Source: Isurus oxyrinchus (taxonomy: Eukaryota). From it: DNA of 64,000 nucleotides. Below, in pieces: positions 705 through 60,366 of the stretch. The stretch spans positions 28,396,001 through 28,460,000 of the forward strand of contig JANJGN010000016.1 of the NCBI GenBank assembly GCA_026770705.1. The letters run 5' to 3'. A program made the position numbers and the translations under genes. Below the pieces are notes generated by a model that worked only from the letters and a program-made list of their open reading frames with translations, searched no databases and had not been told where the DNA came from. How positions within the stretch are numbered: position 1 is the stretch's first letter; each line of letters starts with the position of its first letter.

Positions 705-2025
705 GTAACTTTAAATCTGTTAGAGAAATAAGGGATCGTATTTCTATATCGACATGCTTAAAATTAAAGACAGATCATTCAGTTTAACTGACCTATGATA
801 AAACATTAAAAAAATCAAGGCTACACAGCACAACTCATAATGGTTAAAAAAAAACCTGTTTAAATTTTCTGTGAAAAGTGTAGATGCTGCAACCCCCTAT
901 TTGCTTCATTTTAAAACAACAATGTAACTAGCCATTGCTTAATTAAACAATGCTGCTGAACGAAAAGAATGGAAATGGGCAGTCTGATGGGGTGGGAATA
1001 CTATCATTAGAAATTGAACAGCCAGTTGTAACAACGCTGTTGGAGCAGAAAAAGACCATTCAACCCATTCAATTTGCTCATTATTTCTTCATCTCTGACA
1101 CCTTTGTTCAAATGCGCATTTGGCCTAGTTGAAAAAATAGGCTGATTGCTCTAAACAGTTGAGAAACATTAAGAACAGCTATGAAGTCATACTGTGTGTT
1201 GTTCCACTTAGCCGTAAGATGAGGCTACCCTTAGACCAAACATAAGGATGTTAGCCAAGGAACAAAAATAAATTGTGATTAATAAACTGGTTTAGCTCAG
1301 TTGTAATCAGTCTTGTTGTCCCTTCCTTCCCATATTAATGAGTCATTTCAAAATATAGCAGCTAATTGCTTTTGACATTTACTTGTGTCATAGAAGTCAA
1401 ACAGTTTTTATTGGACCATTGTGCCACAGCCCTTTGACACCTTTGCTTTAAAACTACCTAAGTTGTTGTCTTTGAATATTTGCCACCTGGTGTCAGTAGC
1501 CCCCTTTATAAAATGATGTATATGGTTCAGTTTCACCAGACTACTTAATTTATACTTCACCATATGTTGAGAATATGTTGTGTAGATTCAATTTTTCTGA
1601 TGATTCTGAATGATTCATTTTTAAGTTAGCATTGTAGTACAGAATCTGTTTCAAATGACATTTGCGGGTCTTCACTTGATTTTTAAAAATGGCTTGCATG
1701 ATCTTCCTATATATTTGTAAATAATTTGTAATCTCTTAGCCTTTATGTTCAGTTATTCACAACATTTGGTCAAGGCATTGCCACCTAATGAGTTAAATTA
1801 TACACAATACTGTCCTTTGTTAATCAGATTTGGGTTTTGCATTATCAGCAAGTTCTGAAAGAATAAAACTAAATGTGCAGAATTTCCTGTCGATCCCTAA
1901 ACTGTCAAAATGGAGATTCTGAGGAACTGTGGCAAACCTGACCCTTGACCTCTGTCAAGCAATCATGCCTGTAGGGGGAGTGTCACAATGGGTTCCTGTA
2001 TGGCGGTAATAGGTTTGAAAATCAA

Positions 2026-2160
2026 GGCCAGGATTTTTGGCCCTGCCACAGCATGTCCCCCCCCCATCCCCCAGCGGATGCGGGGAGCCATTTAAATCTC
2101 CATTCAGTTCGGCATGACTGTAATATCCCACTAGGTGGGAGGGGCTGTAAAATTCTGGCC
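2026..2160. mobile_element. ~135 bp MITE (PIF/Harbinger-like)
   Basis: Inverted termini GGCCAGGATTTT...AAAATTCTGGCC with further internal complementarity. Same size and ends as 16535-16670. Confidence 0.6.
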
Positions 2161-2886
2161 AAAGTTTGCTTTGACCAGTGGGAAGTTAGTAGGATCACCT
2201 AAGTTCCTTCACTGTATAAGTGTCCTGTGTGTGAGAAATAGTGGAAAGACACACACAATCTCAAAATTGAGTGGCTTGGCTCCCTTGTCAAAGCCTCAAC
2301 AATCTCTTGTTTTTCTGAAAGCTGCCTTAATATTCATTTCTGGGTTAGCCCACTCCTTAACATTTGAAGTGTTTGAAAACAAGAGGAACCTTTGTGCAAC
2401 TGAACCTTGTCCCTGCTCAAGATGCTCTTGGCATATTGCATACCATGTAAGCTATTAGCACAGAAAGTGAAGAATAAAGAATTCTGGTGACAATAATACC
2501 ATATGACATTCTAGCGCAAAACCAGGCTAAGCATGCCATTCTGTACCGATTGTAAAGATCATCTTTTGTTTGATGTATCTCAACATGGTTCACAAAACTT
2601 TTTGAAACTTTAAATTGTAAATTACAAATTGGCTTGTAGCTAGGGCTCCACATTATGGGGATAAACTTCCTGGAGAAGGCAACCCATCTTTACAAAGGAA
2701 GCATTAGTCATCAGGCAGAGGGATGATAATGTAGATTTAGTTGCAAATATTTCATGATCTCAACACCAGTGACAACAAAGATTAATCCATGAAACAATGT
2801 TTTGGGGGATTTAGTTCCAACCACTTTAAGAGTCTGCATTAGAAATCATAGAAAAGGACCTAGAACTAGCTTTGACTCTTAATAGT

Positions 2887-3438
2887 GGACAGAATTTAAG
2901 CCATCCCAGCCAGCCATGTGGCCACGGGAGTGACCTGGGATGGAGGGGATGCTGTTTAATCATGCAGGAAGGTGTGGGGTGGAGAGCCTGTCACCTTCTC
3001 GACACCCCTCCTAATTAAGTCAAGGGAGGGGATGGTCAAGGTCAGCCAATGCCCTGGCAGCCTGCCTGCGGGTTCAAGGTAGGGAACCTCCTAATCGGGC
3101 AGCTTGAGTCCCTTGGAGAGCTCTTTCAGTAGCAGAAGCTGCCCCCCCACTGAAAGCCCCATCCCTGTCCTCCACATCCCTGTCCTCCACATCTACCACC
3201 TCCAAGTTGGGGAAGGGCCCCCACCCTCGCTGGAGCCTGCCTGGTGACTGCACCAAAATGTCACCTAACTTTGAAGTATTTTTGAGTGGTTTGCACAATA
3301 CATCCAGACTAAGCTGGTACTGAGCAGTTTATGACGGCAGATTTTCAACTGCATTTCCTCATGGGTGTCAGATATGCTGCGTTGGCACTGATCAGGACAT
3401 TGGAGAAAGTGGAACCACTGTAGATTAAAATTGTCTCC
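2887..3438. mobile_element. Degenerate non-autonomous DNA element (MITE-like)
   Basis: GC-richer island with imperfect termini GGACAGAATTT...AAATTGTCTCC. Contains a 15 bp tandem duplication at 3160-3189. Confidence 0.35.
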
Positions 3439-5150: not shown

Positions 5151-5268
5151 TTTTGTTAGGCTTATTCATAATTAAAAACAAAAAACTGCGGATGCTGGAA
5201 ATCCAAAACAATAACAGAATTACCTGGAAAAACTCAGCAGGTCTGGCAGCATCAACGGAGAAGAAAAG

Positions 5269-5307
5269 AGTTGACGTTTCGAGTCCTCATGACCCTTCAA
5301 CAGAACT
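5269..5307 (-). ncRNA. Minimal type I hammerhead ribozyme motif (A6U core variant) in PLE terminal repeat
   Basis: Reads AGUU-CUGUUGA-A-GGGUC-AUGAG-GACUC-GAA-ACGUC-AACU: stem I AGUU/AACU, stem II GGGUC/GACUC, palindromic ACGU stem III, GUC cleavage triplet. Confidence 0.65.
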
Positions 5308-7432
5308 AGGTGAATCCAAGGAGAGGGGTGAAATATAAGCTGGTTTATGGTGGGGAGGGGGTGGTTGGGCGGGGGGAGAGAAGTGGAGGGGGGGGTGGTG
5401 TGGTAGTAGGGATAAGCAAGCAGTGATAGCAGATAATCAAAAGATGTCACAGACAAAAGAACAAAAGAACACATAGGTGTTGAAGTTGGTGATATTATCT
5501 AAACGAATATGCTAATTAAGAATGGATGGTAGGGCACTCAAGGTACAGCTCCAGTGGGGTTGGGGTTGAAAGGCTAGCAGGGCATAAAAGATTTAAAAAT
5601 AATGGAAATAGGTGGGAAAAGAAAAATCTATATAAATTATTGGAAAAAAACAAAAGGAAGGGGGAAGAAACTGAAAGGGGGTGGGGATGGAGGAGGGAGT
5701 TCAAGATCTAAAGTTGTTGAATTCAAAATTCAGTCCGGAAGGCTGTAAAATGCCTAGTTGGAAGATGAGGTGCTGTTCCTCCAGTTTGTGCTGGACTTCA
5801 CTGGAACAATGCAGCAAGCCAAGGACAGACATGTGGGCAAGAAAGCAGGCTGGAGTGTTAAAATGGCAAGCGACAGGGAGGTTTGGGTCATTCTTGCGGA
5901 CAGACTGCAGGTGTTCTGCAAAGTGGTTGCCCAGATTACATTTGGTCTCTCCAATGTAGAGGAGACCACATTGGGAGCAATGAATGCAGTAGACTAAGTT
6001 GGGGGAAATGCAAGTGAAATGCTGCTTCACTTGAAAGGAGTGTTTGGCCCTTGGACGGTGAGGAGAGAGGAAGTGAAGGGGCAGGTGTTGCATCCTTTGC
6101 GTGGGCATGGGGAGATGCCATAGGTGGGGGTTGAGGAGTAGGATGTGATGGAAGAGTGGACCAGGGTGTCCCGGAGGGAACGATCCCTACGGAATGCCGC
6201 CGGGGGGGTGAAGGGAAGATGTGTTTGGTGGTGGCATCATGCTGGAGTTGGCGGAAATGGCGGAGGATGATCCTTTGAATGCGGAGGCTGGTGGGGTGAT
6301 AAGTGAGGACAAGGGGGACCCTATCATGTTTCTGGGAGGGAGGAGAAGGCATGAGGGCGGATGCGCGGGAGATGGGCCAGACACGTTTGAGGGCCCTGTC
6401 AACGACCGTGGGCGGAAAACCTCAGTTAAGGAAGAAGGAGGACACGTCAGAGGAACTGTTTTTGAAGTTAGCATCATCAGAACAGATGCGACGGAGGCGA
6501 AGGAACTGAGAGAATGGGATGGAGTCCTTACAAGAAGCGGGGTGTGAGGAGCTGTTGTCGAGGTAGCTGTGGGAGTCGGCAGGCTTGTAATGGATATTGG
6601 TGGACAGTCTATCATCAGAAATTGAGACAGAGAGGTCAATGAAGAGAAGGGAAGTGTCAGAGATGGACCACGTTGCCATTTCCGCCAACTCCTTTCAAGT
6701 GAAGCAGCATTTCACTTGCATTTGCCTCAACTTAGTCTACTGCATTCATTGCTCCCAATGCAGTCTCCTCTACATTGGAGAGACCAAACGTAAACTGGGC
6801 GACCGCTTTGCAGAACACCTGCGGTCTGTCCGCAAGAATGACCCAAACCTCCCTGTCGCTTGCCATTTTAACCATCCACCCTGCTTTCTTGCCCACATGT
6901 CTGTCCTTGGCTTGCTGCATTGTTCCAGTGAAGCCCAACGCAAGCTGGAGAAACAGCACCTCATCTTCCGACAAGGCACTTTACAGCCTTCTGGACTGAA
7001 TATTGAATTCAGCAACTTTAGATCTTGAACTGCCTCCTCCACCCCACTCCCTTTCTGTTTCTTCCCCCTTCCTTTTGTTTTTTCCAATAATTTATATAGA
7101 TTTTTCTTTTCCCACCTATTTCCATTATTTTTAAATCTTTTCTGCCCTGCTAGCCTTTCAACCCCACCCCCACTGGAGCTGTACCTTGAGTGCCCTACCA
7201 TCCATTCTTAATTAGCACATTCGTTTAGATAATATCACCAACTTCAACACCTCTGTGTTCTTTTGTTCTTTTGTCTGTGACATCTTTTGATTATCTGCTC
7301 CTATCACTGCTTGCTTGTCCCTACAATCACACCACCCTCCTCCACTTCTCTCCCCCCACCCAACCACCCCGCCCCCCCCCACCCCCACACCTTAAACCAG
7401 CTTATATTTCACCCCTCTCCTTCGATTCATCA

Positions 7433-7471
7433 AGTTCTGTTGAAGGGTCATGCGGACTCGAAACATCAACT
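7433..7471 (+). ncRNA. Second copy of the minimal hammerhead motif, sense to SZT2 pre-mRNA
   Basis: AGUU-CUGUUGA-A-GGGUC-AUGCG-GACUC-GAA-ACAUC-AACU. The stem III palindrome is broken by a CpG-type G>A change. Confidence 0.55.
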
Positions 7472-8752
7472 CTTTTCTTCTCCGCCGATGCTGCCAGACC
7501 TGCTGAGTTTTTCCAGGTAATTCTGTTTTTGTTTTTATTCCTAATTAATCCTATTCTAGTCTACATCTAAATATAACGTTAAATATAACTCCTCGGAGAG
7601 ATGGTAACTGCAAATTTTGTGGTACCTAATACAACGCTTATCATGAGACCTTTACAACCACATTGTTTTGCACAGTGGTCACTGCCACATTGTCTCTTAT
7701 TCAGAGAAGCCACTAATGGCCAAGCAACATTCATATCTCTAATAAGTGGTCTTGAGGGATGAGCATTTCTGCTGCATTGTAACCGCGGTTTCTTCCCTCA
7801 TCTGGGCCCTACTGACTGATGTCTTTATAGATGATTTGAACCACGATGTGATTCCTAGGACAAAAGCAATTTGTACTTCATAAAGTCAAGTTTGCTTTGT
7901 TATTTCAAATAGCTTGTCTGCAAAAGCTCAGAGAAGATAGTGACATGCAACAGTACAGTTGTTAGGTACATAAAGAAGCACGGAAGAATACTATTCCACT
8001 TGCTTTCCCTTTGTGTTATGAAAACCTGGCATTGTTACCGTTAAAATATATCAGGCTGCTCCACTAAACAGCTCTGTACATTGTACCAGACAGCCTGCAG
8101 AGGAATCAAAAATGCATTCATATCATAGGGTTACTCAATGATACATCTAATGCAACCTTCCAAACCAGAGATAGAGTGAATCTGTTGCCTGAAACAAAAC
8201 AGGATAACAGATGCCCTCGAGGCTTGTTGATTCTTGGGAAATCAATGTGGGGACAGCAATTTTCTTTGAATGTTGAGTTTTCATTGTTAACACCTTACCC
8301 AAGAAATAAATATCAGTAAACAATTTGGAGAAATGCTTGTTTTAGATACAGACAGTGCAACCAGATGGATATCAGAGGAAATGTTGGTAGGGTGTAATGG
8401 TGCTTTTATGAGAGTTACATCACTCTAAAGGAATGTTCCTGTGGACATTCAGGCACTATGGATGGTCAATTTTTGGGCTTTTGTGTTCAATATTATTGCT
8501 TTTATGAGCTTTAAGTCAGCTGACTTCCTATTGTGGTGAGTAGATTGTACAACTCATTCTATTTATAACTGACAAAATAGAGTGAGAGTACTACATATCT
8601 ATTCCAGTGTGATGTCTAAAATCAGGGCATTTCTTATACTAGGGAGTTATATTCTCAAATGTTGAATCCGGTGATAAGAAACGTGACTGCTGCAAAACAA
8701 TTCCAATCTTTAAAACATTGTTCTAAATTCCCCTAGAACAAAGATAAACCTG

Positions 8753-18885: not shown

Positions 18886-21745
18886 TAGGAACATAGGAAC
18901 AGGAGGAGGCCATTCAGCCCATCGAGCCTGCTCTGCCATTCAATACAATCATGGCTGATCGAACACTTCAATGCCTTTTACCCACATTATCCCCATAATC
19001 CTTTACATTATTGTTAATCAGAAATCTATCAATCTCTACCTTAAACATATTCAATGACTGAGCTTCCACGACCCTTTGGGGTAGAGAATTCCAAAGATTC
19101 GCAACCCTCTGAGTAAAGAAATTTTTCCTCATCTCGATCCTAAGTTTCCCCCTTCTTTTGAAATTGTGTCCTCTTGTTCTAGACTCCTCAACCAGGAGAA
19201 ACACCCGACCTGCATCTACCCTGTCTATTCCTTTAAGTATTTTGTAGGTTTCAATGAGATCATCTCTCATTCTTCAAAACTCTAGAGAATACAGGCCCAG
19301 TTTCCCCAATCTCTCTTCATAAGACAGTCCCACCATCCCTGGAACAAGTCTGGTGAACTTTTGTTGCACTCCCTCTATGGCAATAATATCCTTTTTGAGG
19401 CAAGTGGACCACAGTACTCCACGTGCGGTCTAACCAAACTTCAATGCAATTGAAGCAAGACTTCACTACTCCTGTACTCAAATCCTTGTGTGATAAAGGC
19501 TAGCGTTCCATTAGCCTTCCTAATTACCTGCTGCACCTGCATATTAGCTTTCAGTGACCTATGGACAAGGACATGGAGGTCCCTTTGTACATCTACACTT
19601 TCCAATCTCTTACCATTTGGGAAATACTTTGCACATCTGTTCCTTCTACCAAAGTGGACAACCTCACATTTCTCCACATTGTATTCCATCTGCCTTGTTC
19701 TTGCCCCCTCACATGGTCTGTAGAAATCCTCCTGTAGCTGCTTTACATCTTCCTCACATGTTCCTGCCTAGCTTTGTATCATTAGTGAACTTGGAAATAT
19801 TACATTTGGTTCCCACATCCAAATCATTGATATATATTGTGAACAGCTGGGGCCCAAGTACTGATCCTTGCGGTACCCCACTAGTCACAGCCTGCCAATG
19901 CAAGAATGACCCGTTTAGTCCTTCTCTGTTTTCTACCTGTTAGCCAATCCTTAATCCATGCCAGTATATTGCCTCCTATCCCGTGTGCTTTTAATTTGCT
20001 AATCAATCTCCGGTGGGGGACTTTATCAAAAGCCTTCTGAAAATCCAAGTATATTTCGTCCATTGACTCTCCTTTATCAATTTGTTAGTAATATTCTCAA
20101 AAAACTCCAACAGGTTTGTCAAACATGATTCCCCATTCACCAATCCATGCTGACTATGCCCAGTCAGATCATGATTATCCAAGCGTCCATTTATCACAAC
20201 CTTTATAATAGATTCTAGCATTTTCCTTTCTACTAATGTAAGGCTAACAGGTCTATAGTTCCCTGTTTTCTTTCTCTCTCCCTTCTTAAATAGTGGGATG
20301 ACATTTGCTATCTTTCAATCTTCAGGAACCATTCCAGAATCTATAGGATTTTGGAAAATGATCACCAATGCATCCACTATCTCTACAACAACCGCTTTCA
20401 ACACTCTGGGATACAGAATATCAAGTCTTAGGACTTATCAGCTTTCAGTCCCATTAATTTCTCCAATACAACCTTCTTACTTAAACTAATTTCGTTCAAC
20501 TCCTCATTCTCCCTAGCCCTTGGATCTCTAAATTTGGGAGATTTCCTGTATCTTCCTCAGTGAAAATAGACACAAAGATATCATTTAGCTTCTCTGCCAT
20601 TTCTCTATTCCTCATTATGAATTCTCCTGACTCTGCCTGTAATGGACCCACACTTGACTTAGCCAAACGCTTCCTTTTTACATACCTATAGAAGCTTTAA
20701 CAGTCCGTTTTTATGTTTTTTACTAGATTGCATTCATATTCTATTCTCCCTTTTTTTTTTACCAGTTTCTTGGTCTTCCTTTGATATATTCTAAAAACCT
20801 CCCAGTCCTCAGGTTTATTACTACTTCTGGCAACTTTATAAGCCTTTTCTTTTAATCGTATACAATCTTTAATTTTCTTTGTCAGCCCACAGTTGACTGT
20901 CTTTTTTGGGTTTTTGCACCTTGAAGGAATGTATAGGTTCTGTAAGCTATGTCATAGTTCTTTGAAGACAACCCTTTGCCTATGTACAGTCATACCTTTT
21001 AATGTATTTTCCCAATCCACCTCAGCCAATTTGTCCCTCATACCTTCATAATTTCCTTTATTCAACTTTAACCACCCTTGCCTCAGAGTGAACGACCTCA
21101 CTTTCAAATATAATTTAAAATTCTATCATATTGTCGTCACTCATCCCTAAAGGGTCTTTTACAACAAGATTATTGCTTAGCCTTTTACGTAATACTAGTT
21201 CTAAAAAAGCCTATCATCTAGTCGGCTCCTCAACATACTGCCCTAGTAAACCATCCCTACCACACTCCAGAAACTCATCTTCCACAGCATTAGTGCTCAA
21301 TTGTTTTATCCTGTCTATATGCAGATTGAAGTCACCCATGATTACTGTATTGCCCATGCTACATGCTTCTCTCATCTCCTCATTAATACCATGCCCCACA
21401 TTACCACTACTGTTTGGTGGCCTATAAACATCTCCAACCAATGCCTGCTGCCCTTTGCTGTTTCTTAGCTCCACCCAAATAGATTCCACACATTGTTCTT
21501 CTGATCTGAGATCCTCCCTTACTAACGCCCTGATCCGTCCCTTATTATCAGCACAACTCCATCTCCTTTTCCTTTTTATCTGTCCTTTTTAAACATCGAA
21601 TATCCTTCAATATTCAGTTCCCAGCCTTGGTTACCATGCAGCCATGTTTCCGTAATGGCAATTATATCATACCCATCTAACTCTATTTGTGGCTTTAGAT
21701 CATCTACCTTATTGTGAATGCTAAGTGCATTCAGGTAGAGTGCCC
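18886..21745 (-). mobile_element. CR1-type LINE, most of ORF2 (endonuclease and RT), disrupted
   Basis: ESIWVELRN..VYRPPNS..MGDFN (APE), YLDFQKAFDKVPH (RT), MRDDLIETYK..TRGH C-terminus, TAGGAACA-type tail. Contains stops and frameshifts. Confidence 0.93.
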
Positions 21746-27089: not shown

Positions 27090-29297
27090 GGAGTCATAGG
27101 GAAAGATGCTGTGGTGGTTCGACTAATCTGCCGGATCATGTTCTTGTTTTCTGTGGGAGAGGGTGAGGAACACAATGTTCTTATGGATGGGCCTGTGACT
27201 CATCCAGTAAGTTGGCCGATTGTCTTCTGGGTTGCCAGGGTGGCCATTCCACTCATGTAGAGGCTGTCTACTGGTAGATACCAGAGCGGATCTGTTTTGC
27301 TGAAGGACTCCATGCTTAGCGTGCTTAGGTAAGAGCGTGGATGAATGGACTGACTCAAAACCTGGCCAGGCCAGTTCTGGTCTTGAACCCAGACAGACTG
27401 TCCTGGTGAGAGTGTTGGTAAATCCTGCACTTTGTGGCGACAGTTGTATGTTAGGTTTTGGTATGCCTGCTGGTGGTGCTCTTTTCCTTGTACTTTTTCA
27501 ATCTCTGTTGCTTTGAGGCATGGTCGAAGGGTATGTGGGAGACTTGGGGGCTGTGTATGTAATCTCCTACCCATTAAGAATCTCGGAGCCAGACCCTCCT
27601 GCAGTTGTGTAGACTGATAGCACAGGAAGGCTAGGCTGACGTTGTCATTTTTCTTCAAAGGTTTAACAATACGGACCCCTTTTTCGGTCTCACCATTTGC
27701 CTGTGGATACCTTGGCAAGCTGGTGATGTGGATTGTCCCTGTTTGTTTGTGGCCTGATAAGCTGGACTGAGGGTTGGCTTCTGCCCATGTTGGATTCTTT
27801 CCCCTTAAGATTGTCTTATGCTACTTGCGGAGTTCAAACAGTCTATCTGGATTGCCTTATGCAGGGTTATATCTTCTTTAGCTTGAAGGAGGTCAGAGAC
27901 TACCATCTGTTACATCCACCACTATCCTGTTTCTGATGAGTTCAGACCTTAAATTTCGTATTCACACCTCTCGGCCATCTGTAGAGATCATTTATGAAGA
28001 AATCGACACGTTCCCCGGCAGTTGGACTCTCTTATTGAATTTAGCTCTCTACAGTATTTTATTGGTTTGCAAGTTAAAATAAACATCAAAAGATTTTAAA
28101 ACCTCTTTAAATTTAATGGATGACTCATTAGTACCCTGTCTTACAATGATGTTATCCGTAATCGGGCCTATAGAGTAAAGCAGCGTGTTTACCTGCTCTT
28201 CTTCTGACTTTTCATTCAAACCAGAAGTGATGTTGTATCTTTAAAATCTTTTCCTCCAAATACCCCAATTTGGGACTGTTTGGGCCTTGGGTTAGTCCAC
28301 ATTGAGTAGCAAGTGTTGAATTGAGATCCATGTTTAAAAAACTTTAAATTGTGAGCAGCTTTAAGAACTTGCAGGCTTTAAAGATGCTGTTTACTGTTGA
28401 CTCAGAGACAAAGGGATTTCCTACACTTGCTGGTTTTGGCAGGTTCTGCTGAATGGCTATGGCATGCTTCTTGAAGAAGACTGTTAATAAGCGTTGCCTG
28501 GATTGGCTGTGTGCCAACTTCTTTCGTTCCACGATTTGCTAGGACAAGTAAAAATGCGTTTGAATTTAAAGTTATACTTGCTGTTTTCCGAGCTGGACAG
28601 TTATGACATTTGTGAGAGATTTAAATAATAAATTCTTTTTATGATTTTATGAGCTTGGAGGCCATGTGCTGGGACTCCGACTGGAGGGAATCGAGCTTTA
28701 GCAATGGGCTTTCCTTCAGTGGCATCTCAGATACTGAAGTAGGGAAAGGTTTCTCAGGGCTGGCTACAGCTCGGAACTTTAAAAGTTTTAGCTCAGCCTT
28801 GTAGGCTCTGTGGACTCTGTGCTCTGAAGCTGGACTTCCATGGGAGATTCTGTGGTGTCTTCTGCTGCAGTAAAGCTCTCTGCCTTCAGCTTCCAGGCCT
28901 TTTCTCTGGAGCATTTTTTGGCAAAGTTTCTCAGCATCTTCAACTTCTGTTGGGAACATCTCTCAGATCAGAATTTTCCTTGAGGTTTTTTCTTAGTCTT
29001 TCAGCATCTTGGCTTGTTTCAGCATTTTAGCGATGTTGAGAGTTTTTGATCCCCGGTTGGGAGGGTATTGGTTATAGAAGTCTTTGTAGTCTTCAGTCGG
29101 ATAACTGTAAGTCTTTATTAACAAGAAGAACTATTTACGCATACAGTAAAGGTACAGGCTAGGAGCTATCTCCATGTTTAGTTCCTAACCTTTCTCTGCT
29201 CAACACCACGCTGACCCTGGGTCTGGGTCATGTGCCTTCTTACATCACTCTGCTCAGTCCCACATTAACCTGGTATGTGCTAGCCCCTTATACTACA
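27090..29297 (-). mobile_element. Decayed Ty3/Gypsy LTR retrotransposon (integrase remnant plus LTR-like segment ~29072-29297)
   Basis: ORF 27200-27718 has PRYPQANGETEKGVRIVK..YQST..LMGRRLHT..LSPGQSVWV..PRSY, a Gypsy integrase C-terminus. LTR-like segment starts TGTAGTA on the minus strand at 29297 and contains AATAAA. Confidence 0.75.
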
Positions 29298-29853: not shown

Positions 29854-30003
29854 CAAAGTTTCTCAGCATCTTCAACTTCTGTTGGGAACATCTCTCAGAT
29901 CAGAATTTTCCTTGAGGTTTTTTCTTAGTCTTTCAGCATCTTGGCTTGTTTCAGCATTTTAGCGATGTTGAGAGTTTTTGATCCCCGGTTGGGAGGGTAT
30001 TGG
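29854..30003 (+). repeat. Exact 150 bp direct copy of 28922-29071
   Basis: Identical base for base. Flanked by the 10 bp repeat TGGCCTCAAA at 29848-29857 and 30001-30010. Confidence 0.95.
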
Positions 30004-42055: not shown

Positions 42056-42293
42056 TAAAATAAAACAAAATATTGTGGATGCTGGAAATCTGAAGTAAAA
42101 ACAAAATGCTGGAAAAACTCAGCAGGTCTGGCAGCACATGTGGAGAGAGAAACAGAGTTCACGTTTCCAGTCCAATTTGACTCTGCTTCATTCTGAAGAA
42201 CAGTCATATTGGACTTGGAAAAGTTAACTCTGTCTCTCTCTTGACAGATGCTGCCAGATCTGCTGAATTTTTCCAGCAGTTTGTTTTTATTTC
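42056..42293. mobile_element. ORF-less palindromic mini-element made of two Penelope-like termini
   Basis: ctggaaaaactcagcaggtctggcagca...tgctgccagatctgctgaatttttccag arms match the PLE ends at 5176-5310 and 7430-7534. CTGAAGA hammerhead core at 42193-42199. Candidate TSD ATTCTAGT at 42047-42054 and 42297-42304. Confidence 0.8.
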
Positions 42294-43565: not shown

Positions 43566-43929
43566 ACTGTTGCAAAACTGAAATGAAATGTAAATAGCCA
43601 ATAGTCATGTTAATAGTCAGGAGAACAAGAATGTGCACCCAATTATACTGTACACAGTACAATCATCATATCACTAAGTGAATCTATGAAACAAAGTTCC
43701 ATTGTGCTAATTAATCTTAATATAAAAATCTTTTATCAACCTTTCTGTTTCTTCCTCACTGAGGCCAAATGTACTGATCCATACTGGCTGACGTAACTGC
43801 CTCAACGATGACCAAGGGACAAATCTGAGACCTTCCTTGTCTAGATAATGATGGGTCTGGTACAAGTCTTTTCCAGAGCATCTATACACAGTTCAAGCTT
43901 TGAGAAGAACAGGCTCTTAATTTTTTAAA

Positions 43930-46650
43930 TATTATTTCATGGGATTTGAATTGCTGCCAAGGCCAGCATTTGCTGCCCATCCCCAGTTGTCCTTGAAATG
44001 TGATAGACTGCAGAAGCTTGCTTGCTATCTGGTGCAGATATACTATAGTGCTGTTAGGGAGGGAGTGCCTGGATCTGAACCCAGCGACTATGAAGGAATG
44101 GTGACATATTTTCAATTCAGGATGCTCTGTAGCTTGTAGGGGAACTTCTAATTGATGGTGTTCTCATATGTCTGCTGCCCTTGCCCTAGGTGGTAGAAGT
44201 TGTGTGTTTGGGATGTGCTGTTGAAGAAAACTTGGCAAATTTTATGAGTGCATCTTGTATGGGGTACACATTGCTGTCACTGATCAGTGGTGGAGAGAGT
44301 GAATGTTTAAGATGGTGGATGGGGTGCCGATTAAGTGGGCATCTTTGTCCTGGATGTTGTCGAGCTTCTTGAGTGTAATTGGAATTGCTCTCATCCAGGC
44401 AAGTGGAAAGTATTCCATCGCACTCTTAACTTGTGCCTTGAAGATGGTGAACAGGGATAGGCTTTGGGAGTCAGGAGGTGAGTTACTCCCACTAGAATTC
44501 CCAGCCTCTGACCTGTTCTTGTTGCCGCAGTATTTATATGGCTGGCCCAGTTAAGTATTAGTTAATGGTAACCCCCAGGTTGTTGACTAGGAGATATTCA
44601 GCAATGGTAATGCCATCGAATGTCAAGGGAAACTGGTCATTGTCTGGCACTGGTGTGGTGCAAATGTTACTTGCTACCTATGAACCCAAGCCTGAATGTT
44701 GTACAGCTCATGTATATGGACACAGACTGCATCAGTGTCTGAGGAGTTACAAATGGCCCTGAACACTATGCAATCATCAGCAAACATCCCACTTCTGACC
44801 TTATGAAAGAGGGAAGCTCATTGATGAAGCAAATGATAAAGATGGGTTGGACCTTGGACACTACCCTGAGAAACTCCTGCAGAGATGCCCTGGGACTGAG
44901 ATGATTGACCTGCAACAACCACAACTATCTCCTTTTGTGTTAGGTATGATCCCAACCAGTAGAGAGTCTTCTCCCTGATTCCCATTGTCAGGAAGTTATT
45001 GGAATTTATTGTAGAGTAATAATGAGGTCTGGGTCTGTGTGTGTGAGAGGCTGAATTGAATTAAAGGCAGCTAGTCTGAAGGTATTGATGTAACAGGAGA
45101 TAAATTAGGTTTGAAATGTAAACATAGGTATAAAGGAAATATTTGCATTTTTAAATAGACCAAACTAGATTGATTTCAAAGGCGGGGTGAAATGTTTCAC
45201 CTAGCCAGGGGAAGTTAAGAAAATGTGAATTTGTTTTTTTTACCAGACTACTGGTAAAATTGGTACTAAGAGAAATTTTTATTATTAGAAAGGTAAAGTC
45301 TGAAGACATAGTGAAACAATAGGAATTTGCATTCAAAGGGGAAAAATATGGAAAAAGGAGAGAAGGCTGAGTGCAAGGGAAGGAATTCTAAGATCTAAAA
45401 CAAGTGTGAAAAAGCCTCCAGCATCTACACCTCAAGCTACAAAGAACTGAAGTTAAGAAAACTCAATTTGAATTAGATTGTTCAGGGTACCATGTTTCTT
45501 TTCCTGGGTCTTTTAAAATCTGTGTGTCTTACTGTTGCCTTAACGAAAGCATAACTGGGAGTTAGATTAACTAGGGGATTTAGAAGTTATCATAGTAGTA
45601 ATTTGTAGATCTATGTGTGCTTAAAATCATTTCTTCTATTAATAAAGGTTTAATTTAGTTTTGTAAGAAACCTATAAGCCTCGATGGTCGTATTACTATT
45701 GAATTCAAGGCATGCATCTCAAAATTTATACAAGTTGCAAAACTGTTGTGGCAGTTGTTTCAAATTTCCCTTTGGGATTTGAGTAGCTCAGCATTTACCA
45801 TCAGCTGTGCCATAACACCATCAACTTCAATGTTTCTAGGGCTCCTTGATGCCACACTTGGTCAAATGCTGCTTTGATGTCAAGGGCAGTCAATCTCATC
45901 TCACCTCCTGGGTTCAGCTTCTTTGTCCATGTTTGGACTAAGACTATAATGAGCTCTGGAGCCAGGTGGAAGCCAAAATGAGCATCAGTGAACAAGTTAT
46001 TGAAGTTTAAGCATCACTTCATAGGACTATTTATAACATCTTCCATTGCTTTCCTAATAATTGAGATCAGACTGATGAGGCAGTAATTGGCTGGGTTGGA
46101 TTTGTCCTGCTTTTTGTGGGCAGGACATGATTGGGCAATTTTAAACTTTGTCCGTTAGATACCCATGTTGCAGCTGTACTGGAGGCACAGCTGGTTCTGC
46201 AGTACTGCAGGAGCTCATCAAGGCTCCTTAGACAGCACCTTCCAAACCAACAACAGCTACCATCTAGGAGGACAAGCACAGCAGACACATGGGAACGCCA
46301 CCACCAGGAAGCTCTCCTCCAAGCCACTCACCATCCTGACATGGAAATATATTGTCGTTCCTTTACTGTTGCTGGGTCAAAATCCTGGAACTCCCTCCCT
46401 AATAGCACTGTGGGTGTACTTACACCACATAGCCTGCATTGGTTCAAGAAGGCAACTCACCACCACCTTCTCAAGGGCAATAAATGCTGGCCTAGCCAGC
46501 AATGCACACATCCCATGAATGAAAATAAATACTGCTGGGACCCATAGCCTTTGCTGTATCCAGTGCCTTCAGCTATTTCTTGATGTCATGTGGAGTGAAT
46601 CAATTTGGCTGTAGAATCTGCGATGTCGGGGAACCCAGGAGTAGGCCAGG
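43930..46650 (-). mobile_element. LINE RT/3' fragment of the same family as 55236-58442, interrupted by a solo LTR and an oppositely oriented 3' fragment
   Basis: Collinear with 55250-56840; includes ALDIKAAFDQVWH (RT). A + strand 3' end of the same family lies at ~46210-46530. Confidence 0.88.
44986..45817 (+). mobile_element. Solo LTR (832 bp)
   Basis: TGTCA...TAACA termini, 4 bp TSD CCAT (44982-44985 and 45818-45821), AATAAA at 45641. The host LINE resumes exactly after it. Confidence 0.88.
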
Positions 46651-47104
46651 ATGAGTCTTAAGAGAAGGCATTGAACACATTGTTTAGCATTCAGAAGATA
46701 ATTCACAACTGAGGCTTCTAATACTAAGGAGAAAAAGGTTTATTTCATGGCTTTGTGATTATTGTTACCATAATTTTCTGTTATCTGATGCAAAGTACAT
46801 ACTTTGTACAGTACAGCTGGGCGCACATTTTTGTTCCTTTGTTTTATTTGCATTGCATGCTTGATCAAAGTCTCAAAGCAAATTAGTTTCTTTAGCAGGC
46901 ATTGTATCATTCTGTCCATTGTAAATGGAAAAATTGACAGCAAAATAGATAGTGTTAAGGTTCATTAAAAAGTGTGGAATGTTAGGCATCTCATTCAATA
47001 TTGTGGGATTTTAATCTTATTCTCTGATCTTAACCTGGTTCTCCTTCTAAACTTATTTTATGATCTTTAGTTTCTAGTGCTTTAAAAAATCACATTTAAA
47101 CCAA

Positions 47105-52749: not shown

Positions 52750-53830
52750 AGACTCGTGGAACGAGTGACAATTAAGCCAGCTGGATTGAAAAGTGACTTG
52801 GCAACGTGAAGGCAAAGGCAGTGATAAAACGGAAAAATCACTGCCTGGATGACAGTGAGCAACAGCATGGCACACGGATCTGTGTCAGCTCCCTACTGTT
52901 CACATGATTCATAAATAACCCGGAGGAATGTACTTACGTCAAATGTGATGATGATTTCAAGCTAAGTGGCTAGGTAATAAACCTAAGGTAGATAAACAAC
53001 ATTCAAAGCCCCAGACCAATTAAGTCTACTGGCTAAGGAGCTATACATAGATTTTAACTCAGGGAATGCATAATTGTGAAAGAGACAGCAAATGTGTAGA
53101 TAATGAAGAAATACTATATTGTATAATTAAAAACTAACCAGAAACAGCAAGGATCAAGCTGCTTCTGAGATATCCAAGGGAAACAGCTTTATTTTTGTCC
53201 TGCAATAAAGCTGGGGAAGGAAATTAATCTGGGTGTGCTTACTGATCATTCAAAAAGTTTGTAATCACTATGAAGTTTTTTAAATTTGTTTTTGGGATGT
53301 GTGTTGCTGGTAAGGCCAGCACTTATTGCCCATCCCTACCTGCCCTTGAGACAAATCTAATTAAATCCTGGGATTCGGCTTGATGACATTTAACACAAGT
53401 TATTCTAAACGTGTACCAGTGACTATAGTTGCTGAGATCAGATTTGGAACAGTTGCATGTTTTGGTACTTTCCAAAAAGTCATTGCTATATCAGAGAACA
53501 GTGGCAGGAATTATTCTGGGATTTAGAGGATCTAAGTTATGAAGAGAGATGTGCAGAACTGCGCTTGCTTCTGTTAAAATGTAGGGAGAGCGAGGAAGAG
53601 AAATGATTCAAGGTTTTTAAAATGTTGGGGCATGTCAATTATGCAGAAAGAAGCAGGTTATTTGAATTTAACTGGAAGATACAAGGCTTTAAAAATTAAT
53701 TAGCCTCAAGTGAGACTCGGGATTAGAAAAAAATGTCATGATGTTCATTCAGTAGTGGTAATGTGGAACAGACTACCAGCATATAAAATATAAATTATTT
53801 TAAAAAAGAAGAATTGGTAAGCAGCTGATT
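52750..53830 (+). mobile_element. Very old CR1-like RT/3' remnant, with a short LINE/SINE tail at ~53285-53350
   Basis: Degenerate gatgatgatttcaagctaagtgg and agttatgaagagag..aatgattcaaggtttttaaaatg motifs. Confidence 0.5.
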
Positions 53831-54321: not shown

Positions 54322-55235
54322 CTGTTTAAATAAAAAAAAGAGAAAAAAATTAAATGCACATTTTAACAATTAATGGTTGCCATGCCCTATACGCTGGAGC
54401 TCCCTGTATGACCTTATTGTTTTAGGGTGTTCACCTTATGCCTTAAAAGAAATTGTATTGATCTTATTGTGGACAAAAGTAAACAGGAAACCCCCCAAAA
54501 AGTGAGCTTTTTTTAAAAAATAGAATGTTAAATTGTTCCAGAACCCGCTTACTGAATATTTCTGTTTATGGACAGACTACAATAGATTGTAAACTTGTCA
54601 TACAGCTGAAAAACACTGATTTATTGTAAAAGGTAGAATCAACAGATTATTTCTTACTTGCCCAGTAAATGTATGAGCCACCAGGTAAAAATTCAGATTC
54701 CCCTGTAAGCAAACTGTTGCATCCTTTTCTCATTGTATATGCTGGGCTTGAATATACAAAGCCACACAGTTGCTTTGATTTTAATTTCTTTTTATTGTTC
54801 ACGGTCAGTTTCATAAACCCAATGACAATAGTTAAGACTTAAAAACTTAATGGACAGTGCACTTTTTAAAACTTAACTGGATGTGGATGAAGCTAGCTTG
54901 ATTTGTTGAGTCACTACTTTTTGTGATATCCAACTCTCACACAAATATATAAATAATAAAAGGCTATTCAAAGGAAGGTTGGGCCCAATTGGGTACCAAA
55001 AAGGAGACCTTGTGGAGGCAGAGGGCATGGCTGAAGTAGTAAATTAGTTTTCACTCAAGAAGAGCATGCTGCCTATATCACAGTAAAGGAGGAAATAGTA
55101 GAGAAATTGGAAAGGATAAAAACAGATAAAGAGGTGTTAAAGGATGGCAGTGCTCAATGTAGAAAGATCACCCAGTCTGGGATGGGATGCACCCTAGATT
55201 ACTGAGGGAAGTGAGGGTGGATATTGTGGATGTTC

Positions 55236-58200
55236 TTTTTTAAAAAATTCTTTCACAGATGTGGGCATTGCTGACCAGGCCAGCATTTATTGCCCATCCC
55301 TAGTTGCCCTTGAGAAGGTGGTGGTGAGCAGCCTTCTTGAACCGCTGCAGTCCAAGTGGTGTAGGTACACCCACAGTACTGTTTGGGAGGGAGTTCCAGG
55401 ATTTTGACCCAGCGACAGTGAAGGAACGGCGATATATTTCCAAGTCAGGATGGTGAGTGGCTTGGAGGGGAACATCCAGGGTGGTAGTGTTCCCATGTGT
55501 CTCCTGCCCTTGTCCTTCTAGATGGTAGCAGTCATGGATTTGGAAGGTGCTGTCTAAGGACCCTTGGCGAGTTTCTGCAGTGCATCTTGTAGATGGTACA
55601 CAATGCTGCTACTGTGCATCAATGGTGGAGGGAGTGAATGTTTGTGGATGGGATGCCAATCCAGGGGGCTGCTTTGTCCTGGTTGGTGTGAAGCTTCTTG
55701 AGTGTTGTTGGAGCTGCACTCATCCAGGCAAGTGGAGAGTATTCCGTAAAACTCCTGACTTTGCCTTGTAGATGGTGGGCAGGTTTTGGGGAGTCAGGAG
55801 AATCCACAGTCTCTGACCTGTTCTTGCAGCCACAGTAATTATATAGCTGGCTCTGTTCAGTTTCTGGTCAATGGTAACTCCCCCAGGATGTTGATAGTGG
55901 AGGATTCAGTGATGGTAATACTATTGAACAGCAAGGGGCAATGGTTAGCTTTTCTCTTGTTGGAGATGGTCATTGCCTGACACTTGTGTGGCGTGAATGT
56001 TACTTGCCGCATTCAGCCCAAGCCTGAATGTTGTCTAGGTCTTGCTGCATATAGGCATGGACTGCTTCAGTATCTGAGGAGTCGTAAGTGGTGCTGAACA
56101 TTGTGCAATCATCAGCGAACATCCCCACTTCTGACCTTATTATGGAAGGAAGATCATTGATAAAGCAGCTGAAGATAATTGGGCCTAGGACACTACCCTG
56201 AGGAACTCCTGCAGTGATGTCCTGGGACTGAAATGACTGACCTCCAACAACCACAACCATCTTCCTTTGTGCTAGGTATGACTCCAACCAGTGGAGAGTT
56301 TCCCCCCCCCCCCGCCCCCGATTCCCATTGACTCCAGTTTTACATGGGCTCCTTGATGCCACACTCGCTCAAATGCTGCCTTGATGTCAAGGGCAGTCAC
56401 TCTTAACTCTCCTCTGGAGTTCATCTCTTTCGTCCATGCTTGAATCAAAACTGTAATGAAGTCAGAAACTGAGTGGTCCTGGCAGAACCTAAACTAAACA
56501 TCAGTGAGGAGGTTATTGCTGAGTAAGTGCTGCTTGATAGCACTGTTGATGACCCCTTGCATCACTTTACTGATGATTGAGAGCAGACTCATGGGGCAGT
56601 AGTTTACCGGGTTGGATTTATCCTGCTTTTTGTGTACAGGATGTACCTGGGCTATTTTCCACATTGCCACGTAGATGCCAGTGTTGTAGCTGTACTGGAA
56701 CCACTTGGCTAGGGGTGTGGCAAGATCTGGAGCACAAGTCTTCAGAACTACTGCCAGAACATTGTCAGGGCCCATAGCCTTTGTAGAATCCATTGTCCTC
56801 AGCCATGTCTTGATATCATGTGGAGTGAATCAAATTGGCAGAAAACTGGCACCTACGATCATCCACTTGGCACTCCTGTCTGAAGATGGTTGCAAATGCT
56901 TCAGCCTTATCTTTTGCACTGATATGCTGGGCTCCTCCATCATTGAGGAAGGGGATATTTGTTGAGCCTCTTCCTCCAGCGAGTTGTTTAATTGTCCATC
57001 ACCATTCACGACTGGATGTGGCAGAACTGCAGAGTTTAAATTTGTTCCATTGGTTGTGGGATCGCTCAGCTCTGTCTATCACATGCTGTTTACACTGTTT
57101 TGTATGCAATAGTCCTCTGTTGTAGCTTCATCAGATTGAGACTTCATTTTTAGGTAATCCTGGTGCTGCTCCTGATATGCCCTCTTCATTGAACCAGGGT
57201 TGATCCCCCAACATGATAGTAATGGTAGAGTGGGGGATATGCCGAGCCATGATGTTATAGATTGAGGTTGTATACAATTCTGCTGCTGCTGAGGTTCCAC
57301 AGTGCCTCATGAATATTCAGTTTTGAGTTGCTGGATCTGTTCAAAATCTATCCCATTTAGCAAGGCGATAGTGCCACACAATACGATGGAGGGTATCCTC
57401 AATGTGAAGACAGGAATTTGTCTCCACAAGCACTCCTACCAATACTGTCACGGACAGATGCATCTGTGACAGATAGGTTGGTGAGGATGAGGTCAGAAAT
57501 GTTTTCCGTTTTGCTGGTTCCCTCACCACTTGCCGCAGACCCAGTCTTGCAGCTATGTCCTTTAGGTCTCGACTGGCTCAGTCAGTAGTGGTGTTACTGA
57601 GCCAGTCTTGGTGAAAGATATTGAAGTACCCCACCCAGAGTACATTCTGTGCCCTTGCCAGCCTCAGTGCTTCGTCCAAATGGTGTTCAACATGGAGGAA
57701 TATTGATACATCAGCTGAGGAGGCAGGGTAAGTAGTTACCAGCAAGGGGTTTCCCGTCCATGTTTGGCCTGATGTCATGAGACTTCATGGGGTCCAGAGT
57801 CAATGCTGAGGACTCCCAGGGCAACTCCCTCCTGACTGTATACCACTGTACCGCCACCTCTGCTGGGTCTGTCCTGCCGGTGGGCCAAGACCTACCCACG
57901 GATGGTGATGGTGGTGTCTGGGGCATTGTCTATAAGGTATAATTCTGTCAGTATGACTATGTCAGGCTGTTGCTTGACTAGTCTGGGACAGCTCTCCCAA
58001 ATTGGGCACAAGCCTCCAGATGTTAGTAAGGAGGAATTTGTAGGGTTGACAGGGCTGGCTGTGCCGTTGTCATTTCTAGTGCCCAGATCGACACCGGGCT
58101 GCCCGAGTTTCATTCCTTTTAGGCTTCATAGCAGTTTGATACAACTGGGTAGCTTACTAGGCCGTTTTGGAGGGCATTTAAGAGTAAACCACATTGCTGT

Positions 58201-58442
58201 GAGTCTAGAGTCACATGTAGGCCAGACCAGGTAAGGACATTAGTAAACCAGGTGGGTTTTTACGACAATCGACAATGGTTTCATGGTCACTATTACCAAA
58301 ACTAGCTTTTAATTCCAGATTTATTAACTGGATTCAAATTCCACCAGCTGCTGTGCTGGGATTTGAACTGTATCCCAACAACATTGACCTGGCCCTCTGG
58401 ATTACTAATCTAGTGACATTACCACTATGACACCCGCTCCCC
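55236..58442 (-). mobile_element. Apparently full-length single-ORF LINE (APE and RT, decayed) with tRNA-like 5' head; resembles the elasmobranch HER1 LINE / HE1 SINE family
   Basis: PDIVILTE (APE), [38 protein letters not shown] (RT). 3' end ...AGGGATGGGCAATAAATGCTGG. Family name is from recall. Confidence 0.88.
58359..58432 (-). promoter_or_regulatory. tRNA-type (type 2) Pol III internal promoter at the LINE 5' end
   Basis: A-box-like TGTCATAGTGG (58432-58422) ~10 nt from the element start; B-box-like AGTTCAAATCC (58369-58359). Confidence 0.7.
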
Positions 58443-60366
58443 AACTGACCACAATCTTCCAATTTTCCTTAGAAATTGGAGTGGTGCCAGAGGACTGGAG
58501 GATGAAAAAAGTTACACCCCTGTTCAAAAGAAGGGAAGGGGGCTAAACTTGGCAATTCCGAACAATCGGCCTATCATCTGTGGTGAGGAAACTTTTAGAG
58601 ATATGAATCAGTGACAAAATGAACTGACGCTTGGAAAAGTATGGGTTAATAAGTGCAAGGCAGCATGGATTTGTTAAAAGCAAATCATGCTTGGCTCATT
58701 TGATTGAGTTCTCTAGTGAAGTAACGGAACGAGTTGATGAGGTAGTGCAGTTGGTGTTATGTATACGGGTTTTCAGAAATGTTTGATAACCACTGGAGTG
58801 AGCGGTGGCTTGATTGAAGTATATAAGATCCTAAATTGTATTGACAAGGTGGACATGGAAAGGATGTTTCCTCTTGTGGCTGAGTCCAGAGCTAGGGGAC
58901 ATTATTTTAAAGTTAGGGATTACCCTTTTAGGACAGAGACGAGGAGAATTTTCTTCCCTCAGGGGGCTGTGCGACTTTGGAACTCTCTGCCTCAGAAGAT
59001 GGTGGAGACGGGGTCATTGAATATTTTTAAGGCAGAGGTAGATAGATTCTTGTTAGTCGAGGGAATCAAAGGTTATCAGGGGTAGATGGGAATGTGGACC
59101 TTGAAATACAAATAGATCAGCCATGATCTTAATGAATGGCAGAGCAGGCTCAAGGTGCTGAATGGCCTACTTTGGCTCCTATTTCGTATGTTCATATGTA
59201 ATAAAATTGTTAGCAAAATTGAAGCCCCTGGAATTAAAGGGACAATGGCTGCATGGATACAAATTGGTTCAGGGAAAGAAAGAATTGCGTAGTGGTGAAC
59301 AGTTGTTTTTCAGATAGGAGTGATATGTGCGGTGTTGTCCCTCCAAGAGATGGTGCTCTTTTTTATAAATAAAAATAACCAGGGCTTGGGTGTACTGGTA
59401 ACGCTTTCAAAGCTTGCAGATGACATGAAAGCTGGAAATGTAGTGATTAGTGAGGAGGATTGTAACAGACTTCAGGAGGACATGGACTGGTAAAATGGGA
59501 AGGTACATGGCAGTTAGAATCTAATGCAGAAAAATGCAATGTGATTCATTTTGGCAGGAAGAATGAAAAGAGGCAAAAAAACAGAATTATATAATTTTAG
59601 AGTTTTAGTGTAACCTAGGGGTACACATACACAAGTCTTTGATGGTGGCAGGACTAATTGAGAAAGTTATTTAAAAGGCATATGAGTTCTTTGGCTTTAC
59701 AAATAGATGCATAGGTACACTGGTTAGGCCTCAGCTGGAGTATTGTGCTGAATTCTGGGCAGCACACTTCAGGAATAATGTCAAGGCCTTGGAGAGGCTG
59801 CTGAGGAGATTTACAAGAATGGTAATAGGGATGAGAAACTTCAGTTACATGGACAGACTAGAGAAAGTGGGATTGTTCTCCTTAGAGCAGAGATGACTAA
59901 CGGGAAGTTTGACAGAGGGGTTCAAAATCTTGAAATATTTTAATAGAGTAAACAAGGAAAAATTGTTTCCAGTAGCAAAAAGACACCAGAGGACACAGGT
60001 TTAAGACGGTTGACAAAAGAACCAGAGGCGACATGAGGAAACATCTTTTTTATGCAGCAAGTTGTTCTCTTCTGGAATGTATTGCCTGTTGGAGATAGAT
60101 TAAATAATAACTTTCAGTGGGGAGCTGGATAAATACTTGAAAAGGAAGAAGCATGTTGAGCCATGGGTCAAAAGCAGAACATTAAAAGAGCTTTCCAAAT
60201 AATCCCAATGTCCAGCTTTTGAGCTGGCACAGGCATGTGGGCCAAATGGCCTCCTCCTGTCTGTGTGACTCTGCGATCACAAACGTACACTCCCAAATTT
60301 CAGTACTGTGTCTGTAGTATCTAAAGAAAGAAGAGTGTGAAGGAAATGCAATTCTGGGTAACCCAC

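Follow-up and report, generated by a model that had tools for sequence, protein, structure and literature searches.

Textbooks separate LINEs from SINEs by both content and polymerase, with coding transcripts of Pol II in the first class and non-coding transcripts of Pol III in the second. The retrotransposon described here resembles elements on either side of this divide. With R2, L1Tc and other single-ORF non-LTR elements it shares the lack of ORF1 and a seemingly non-standard translation; R2 is co-transcribed by Pol I, uncapped and with no conserved AUG, and we know of no report of a tRNA-type Pol III promoter in any of these elements. Recoding by 2A sequences has been described in single-ORF non-LTR elements (PMC3894237, passages on recoding). 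With tRNA-derived SINEs (SINE2; for instance HE1/HER1 and SacSINE1/L2-2_CM) it shares an A/B-box head, a body and a LINE-type tail; such SINEs carry no ORF, according to passages of PMC5786205, whereas the present LINE does. Persaeus is a deletion derivative (SIDE) of lepidopteran Zenon, and passages of PMC6740152 give it neither tRNA homology nor a Pol III promoter. Like Persaeus and the RTE/Vingi derivatives, the short elements discussed below are built from the two ends, 5' and 3', of a LINE with one ORF and appear to have arisen repeatedly. However, the RTE/Vingi model has the tRNA head joining only once the deletion has occurred (PMC5786205, in part), whereas here the autonomous LINE already has it.

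Elasmobranch Zenon elements were catalogued by Stuart and others, whose Supplementary Table 2 includes CarCar_Zenon-1, ScyCan_Zenon-1, RhiTyp_Zenon-1, HypSab_Zenon-1 and SquAca_Zenon-1 to -3 (Stuart et al., 2026; PMC13343379, main text and table excerpts). Zenon is defined there by the lack of ORF1 and a poly-A tail, so the absence of ORF1 is already known. The word "tRNA" does not occur in the main text and "SINE" occurs once, in a reference; the head, the T-run depletion, the missing start codon and the partner SINEs presented here are not described in it. An earlier note on this DNA had suspected that the element may already be catalogued, which holds for its sequence, published as Zenon, but not for the tRNA head, unremarked in that main text.

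Anatomy of the element and its surroundings

Within the window, that is, the whole 64,000-nucleotide stretch analysed, the minus strand from 58442 to 55236 is, on a by-eye naming, a full-length but dead copy of the Zenon LINE of elasmobranchs. Its anatomy is almost beyond doubt: a tRNA-like head, a leader, a single endonuclease–reverse transcriptase (RT) ORF and a tail, without ORF1. The features are as follows.

55236..58442, minus strand: whole element, by its naming a decayed full-length Zenon LINE, with a head of the older B-type subfamily
58422..58432, minus strand: A box of the tRNA-like head, mapped from consensus 12-22
58397..58413, minus strand: anticodon-like arm with AGT in the loop, tRNA-Thr-like, mapped from the consensus
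58359..58369, minus strand: B box, AGTTCAAATCC; the family form is GGTTCRAATCC
58143..58358, minus strand: 5' body, common to the partner SINEs up to consensus 316 (consensus mapping and SINE joins)
58037..58142, minus strand: LINE-only leader, an A-rich indel-prone tract and then an out-of-frame AUG at 58113-58111
57365..58036, minus strand: part of the single ORF that encodes the APE endonuclease, end approximate (on sister copy L079, Pfam PF03372 and PF14529)
55870..56661, minus strand: reverse transcriptase region, ends approximate (Pfam PF00078 on sister copy L045)
55236..55313, minus strand: 3' tail, common to the partner SINEs, with AATAAA at 55291-55286 and a decayed poly-A
54948..55235, plus strand: left part of the host CR1, split by the Zenon insertion (alignment to other CR1 copies)
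58443..59204, plus strand: right part of the host CR1, RT start and 3' part (alignment to other CR1 copies)
43921..46653, minus strand: second family copy, 5'-truncated, consensus 1636-3291 (consensus alignment)
53276..53351, minus strand: isolated 3' tail fragment of the Zenon family or of its SINE

The start at 58442 with A- and B-box motifs, as claimed beforehand, agrees with the mapped boxes (58432-58422 and 58369-58359); the A box reads TGTCATAGTGG, and the family majority is TGGCATAGTGG. It had also been claimed that the head has no SINE tail of its own and leaves no room for an ORF1, and only 406 nt indeed separate the head start from the first endonuclease strand, which begins at 58036. 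PDIVILTE follows at 57966-57943, the FADD motif of the RT lies at 56119-56108 and the ORF stop codon at 55302-55300, all on the minus strand. The copy is 85% identical to the family consensus, with numerous stops and frameshifts, and has a 24-nt deletion at 58232, flanked by two GTCCTT repeats. This same deletion is seen in many LINE and SINE matches, partly as an effect of the query, and suggests recurrent slippage. A single insertion into a CR1, proposed on first inspection, accords with the alignment of the host to three other CR1 copies: the plus-strand halves rejoin with about 3 extra nt between them, and the comparison revealed no clear target-site duplication.

By using default thresholds, ARAGORN and Rfam made no call in the whole window, the head included, and the label "tRNA-derived" therefore rests on the boxes and the arm. 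Relaxed ARAGORN reports a tRNA-Thr(AGT) at consensus 8-96, together with 18 spurious tRNAs; Rfam applied to the head gives nothing at the gathering threshold, the best match being a weak T-arm-like one to tmRNA (E 0.066). Compared with the SINE2 class, the head has both boxes, but the element is neither short nor non-coding, at 3.3 kb and with an ORF under selection.

The five T4 runs counted earlier on the sense strand are present (58301, 57346, 56845, 56450 and 55751), but the accompanying statement that there is no T5 or longer run does not hold, as a T6 lies inside the decayed A-tail at 55247-55242. None of these T4 and T6 runs is present in the family consensus. Three of the T4 runs are missing from the second copy, as had been stated, and that copy has two T4 runs of its own in the aligned parts; it also contains an 830-nt insertion (44988-45817) and an inverted 3' family piece (46204-46529). 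The T5-T6 runs reported for the CR1 at 18886-21745 were found among its 9 runs of T4 or longer.

Other repeats are visible in the window. A 200-nt palindromic MITE-like element with arms 84% identical lies at 42092-42293, with pieces related to it at 5175-5286 and 7454-7530; an inverted pair of 850-nt repeats, 92% identical (5205-6041 / 6688-7535, 650-nt spacer), possibly represents DNA transposon ends; and 28922-29071 is an exact 150-nt direct duplication of 29854-30003, 932 nt apart.

The head as the 5' end of the family

A 693-nt query of head plus endonuclease yielded 14149 first-look candidates in the same genome, and the 40 that were scored all align over at least 475 nt of it, across the head–ORF join. 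From the window copy and 39 fetched loci, with refinement on 68 younger alignment segments, a family consensus of 3292 nt was built. It has one stop-free frame of 975 codons encoding APE and RT, no ORF1 and a poly-A tail, as Zenon does; from its start to the APE are 428 nt, and the leader takes about 340 nt. The RT tree places the family, assigned to Zenon of the CR1 group, far from shark CR1. Among the copies listed, 14 full-length ones end in an A-run after GAATGAAT-like sequence. The ORF of the source elements is under purifying selection: 62 of 113 shared non-CpG variants are synonymous in its frame, versus 24 and 19 in the other frames. No intact copy occurred among the loci fetched, a non-exhaustive set in which the longest family frames have 424-465 codons.

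Constancy of the head–ORF join had been set as a test by the earlier note, and three samples chosen without the head bear on it: 29 non-self loci of 40 matches to an endonuclease DNA query, 20 of 40 matches to a young endonuclease-linker query, and 20 of 145 matches, spread down the list, to an endonuclease protein query. Consensus 316 or further upstream is reached by 22/29, 14/20 and 16/20 copies, respectively, and 15, 9 and 7 begin within 35 nt of the consensus start. With 52 of 69 copies entering the head region, the join is fixed across the family. In the other 17 the 5' end is truncated at 320-551, and their flanks are unrelated except for two duplicated pairs; the 69 copies have no alternative 5' end and no common sequence upstream of position 1. 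An ORF1-bearing parent was considered and rejected: the 69 copies include none, and young copies starting at 476-551 have unrelated flanks bar one duplicated pair. A junction unique to this locus or variable between copies, normal T-run content, and an ORF1 or Pol II 5' UTR, all named beforehand as contrary outcomes, did not turn up.

Two further features of the copies were observed. Truncations cluster at consensus 341-347, the A-rich tract immediately before the AUG at 349, in 5 independent copies of the 69 sampled (L076, L096, L286, L287, L288), which could reflect microhomology with A-rich targets or the end of a processed RNA. Copies with the least divergence are found mainly towards chromosome ends or on small contigs (for example C6 190-193 Mb and C18 115-116 Mb), and this bias may be due to slower decay or recent duplication rather than age.

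The head extends to other species. Over its first 400 nt, CarCar_Zenon-1 (3288 nt) agrees by eye almost letter for letter with the 3292-nt consensus, and the tRNA-like head opens all seven shark and ray Zenon rows, by eye within the same length (PMC13343379, sequence excerpts). To judge by this likeness, the window element and published elasmobranch Zenon are the same family. Two hagfish rows and a coelacanth row, by eye, have no head in their visible 400 nt and carry T4 or longer runs there (same excerpts). In contigs of three of four other organisms the head–ORF join is bridged by at least 31 nt on each side; for the fourth, the longest contig listed extends only 27 nt into the head side and was not counted as bridging. 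The whole element is covered by contigs from presumed RNA runs; start, strand and level are not readable from them, and they were not counted as evidence. With the same join in dozens of loci, three other organisms and seven published consensus rows, it is practically impossible that a SINE came to lie beside a truncated LINE by chance, or that a chimera arose once, at this locus only.

The family is ancient and widely distributed: annotated protein fragments of 65-84% identity are found in Heptranchias, Mobula, Heterodontus, Scyliorhinus and Pristiophorus, and the best unrelated full-length relatives show about 40% identity. Pieces of the ORF also appear inside annotated shark host proteins (aldo-keto reductase, cystathionine beta-synthase, GPR139, CWC25 and CSL4), likely as gene-model errors and possibly by exonisation. 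The head motif had 0 matches in prokaryote and viral contigs, and neither the head nor upstream A and B boxes were found in 80 metagenome LINE loci, of which many contigs start near the ORF. A literature search, with Repbase, Dfam, SINEBase and subscription journals outside its scope, found no tRNA-headed coding LINE described, nor one transcribed by Pol III; the family-wide architecture is real and apparently undescribed.

Partner SINEs and their origin

A search with the head alone found 29 loci, 9 of them LINE, 18 SINE-like and 2 unclassified. Two SINE joins dominate, 293/3218 and 316/3217 in consensus positions. The two partner SINE families measure about 370 and 390 nt, of which 76 nt are the Zenon tail, and single copies with joins at 318-392 retain LINE-only sequence. 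The 316 join is also present in contigs of other organisms. There are two LINE head types, and the A head was found in 32/32 SINE293 rows and the B head in 15/15 SINE316 rows, with A/B labels set from sites within the aligned region and SINE sets retrieved by queries of their own type. In a tree of 101 of the 108 heads (7 left out), LINE_A plus SINE293 separates from LINE_B plus SINE316 at 99/98, and 31 SINE293 rows nest inside LINE_A (94/90) with changes of their own; its bootstrap had not settled, and 3 LINE rows labelled B are placed on the A side. Because the labels come from the same region and the sampling was query-led, the tree shows the pairing of join type with head type and favours, without proving, deletion. 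By this comparison the two SINE families are the Zenon LINE's two ends, each with the head of a different LINE subfamily. The proposal that the partner SINE is an internal-deletion derivative gains support, and the evidence favours an origin of both SINE293 and SINE316 by deletion from the LINE.

It could be argued instead that the SINEs are older and independent and that repeated SINE–LINE exchange produced the matching heads, a proposal that concerns SINE origin only and suits either polymerase. The head must once have come from a SINE or a tRNA, the SINE tails, which match the Zenon tail, give little signal, and module exchange between SINEs is documented (PMC5499810, in part). Such exchange is nevertheless rather improbable as the source of these families, considering that their joins differ and are each tied to one LINE head type, that SINE293 is nested in LINE_A, and that the single-copy joins keep LINE-only sequence.

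Two names for these SINEs were tried and dropped. HE1, a lead taken from the earlier note, was set aside: it is a V-SINE paired with HER1 (PMC3747384, in part), and the partner SINEs are probably a different family. A Deu-domain/SacSINE1 label was withdrawn as the published length and LINE partner do not fit: SacSINE1 has 463 bp and a tail matched to an L2 LINE (PMC5499810, in part), against some 370-390 nt and a Zenon tail here. Both distinctions are drawn from the descriptions of HE1 and SacSINE1, not from sequence comparison. Three SINE-body motifs were absent from the bivalve SINE supplements (PMC11481361 and one PMC4824008 file), which perhaps do not hold full consensuses.

Translation and the choice of polymerase

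The first in-frame methionine lies 290 codons into the ORF, beyond the endonuclease, and no in-frame AUG precedes it. Upstream of the ORF the consensus has at least 10 AUGs, none of which opens it in frame, and a common subfamily has an in-frame stop at 318-320 (23/79 copies). The AUG at consensus 349 follows the A-rich indel-prone tract and is out of the ORF frame, requiring a -1 shift before 429; it is present, by eye, in 6 of the 7 published shark and ray rows (PMC13343379, sequence excerpts). Neither a conserved slippery site between 349 and 429 nor a 2A motif in the leader peptide is visible in the consensus. Of the shared changes at 352-428 other than C>T/G>A, 5/7 are synonymous in the ORF frame and 0/7 in the AUG frame, two of the variant sites lying in a predicted loop; across the published species, by eye, both frames change about equally in this interval (same excerpts). 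Leader positions 346-445 are predicted to form a three-way junction closing at the APE start, with stability like that of shuffles (z about -1), the 5' 361 nt fold with z -1.9, and no IRES-like fold stands out against shuffles. Beyond the leader, several 90-nt ORF windows (921-1010, 1641-1730 and 461-550) fold far better than shuffles, with z from -3.8 to -5.9, and exceed the leader in this respect. Since the first in-frame methionine falls past the endonuclease and the AUG at 349 is out of frame, methionine-independent initiation or recoding is needed for translation.

The other unusual property of the ORF is its run composition. The sense strand of the whole consensus has 6 runs of T3 or longer and 0 of T4 or longer, versus 47, 51 and 41 runs of at least three A, C and G. 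T3 runs are not themselves Pol III terminators. The 4 T3 runs of the ORF are its 4 TTT codons, against 12.5 expected from synonymous-codon shuffles (as low in 0/1000) and 16.7 under a second null; A-runs match the shuffle expectation. The ORF has 0 T4 runs with about 2.1 expected, which alone is not significant (P 0.08-0.12 given the codons, P 0.24 under a first-order Markov model), and the signal thus rests on T3 together with low T (20%) and low Phe (1.9%). In the same genome, 15 of the 20 CR1 loci fetched gave a consensus whose ORF2 contains 37 T3 runs versus 40 expected, and 10 T4 runs. From 80 metagenome LINE loci, taken as single contigs and not consensuses, 55 gave an ORF of at least 550 codons: none is T4-free (lowest 1.5 T4 per kb), and their observed-to-expected T3 ratio is 0.72-1.12, compared with 0.32 in the Zenon ORF. 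Nine of these LINEs that group with the family in the RT tree also have at least 1.5 T4 per kb; the control LINEs are T-richer, and their RT is at best 40-47% identical to that of the Zenon family. Among genomic copies, T4 density climbs with divergence from 0.25 to 0.97 per kb, as expected if T-runs arise after insertion. The T-run depletion first seen on one copy is therefore borne out on the consensus, where it exceeds that of CR1 and the 55 LINE ORFs, and this excess is the main, if indirect, support for Pol III.

Pol III RNAs have no m7G cap. On the present evidence the Zenon source elements are probably transcribed by Pol III from the tRNA-like head. An ancestral Zenon lacking ORF1, a general Zenon trait and not a result of the head, would have gained the head through a template switch to a tRNA-derived SINE, before the shark/ray split. 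TFIIIC would bind the boxes, Pol III would start about 11 nt before the A box and stop at the first T-run in the flanking DNA, and it could read through 3.3 kb because selection removed internal T-runs. The uncapped RNA would be translated by methionine-independent initiation, or from the conserved out-of-frame AUG with a frameshift, and this translation is the weak link of the scheme. The protein would bind the 3' tail, and the RNA would be inserted by target-primed reverse transcription. An internal deletion retaining promoter and tail would then be a ready-made SINE, which may have happened at least twice.

Transcription by Pol II can also be envisaged, either from an internal promoter in the 300-nt body or by host read-through, with the head as an inherited 5' UTR, the boxes of use to the SINE derivatives only, and the T-run depletion due to another cause, for example the stability of the RNA or slippage of the RT. 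Pol II is the usual polymerase of LINEs, and a capped RNA would solve the translation problem (PMC5786205, in part); lepidopteran Zenon and its deletion derivative have no Pol III promoter (PMC6740152, in part); the T4 absence alone has P about 0.08; and the AATAAA hexamers of the 3' end are also compatible with Pol II processing. A cap-scanning ribosome, however, would have to pass the upstream AUGs without finding one in frame, the depletion is specific to T and to the sense strand and absent from both sets of controls, and the boxes are kept in five species while the sequence between them varies (by eye in published excerpts). Both Pol II transcription and this account of the depletion are considered unlikely.

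A division of labour has been weighed as well, in which a Pol II RNA, driven by a host or internal promoter, is translated and the protein copies full-length Pol III RNAs of the family in trans, the 3.3 kb unit thereby moving like a giant SINE. The boxes and the depletion would be explained with no uncapped translation, and mobilisation in trans of RNAs with a shared tail is documented for CR1-group enzymes (PMC5499810, in part). The synonymous bias among head-bearing subfamilies, which means that selection acted in each copied lineage on that lineage's own ORF, fits cis action better, and no second 5' end exists in the 69 copies, making this scheme quite improbable. Taken as a whole, a coding LINE transcribed by Pol III through a tRNA promoter captured by the shark-ray ancestor, translated from an uncapped RNA lacking a start AUG, and giving rise to SINE families by single deletions, is the account that we narrowly prefer.

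For repeat annotation, a tRNA-headed Zenon means that copies are wrongly split into a SINE plus a LINE. If Pol III transcription is true, Pol III would be producing a nuclear mRNA in nature, with a 2.8 kb ORF kept by selection downstream of a tRNA promoter, and the 430-nt leader should hold a means of translating uncapped RNA with no in-frame AUG; such a leader would be directly testable and useful for compact expression cassettes. The family would, if so, also offer a one-step route to the birth of SINEs and an origin for one SINE "body".
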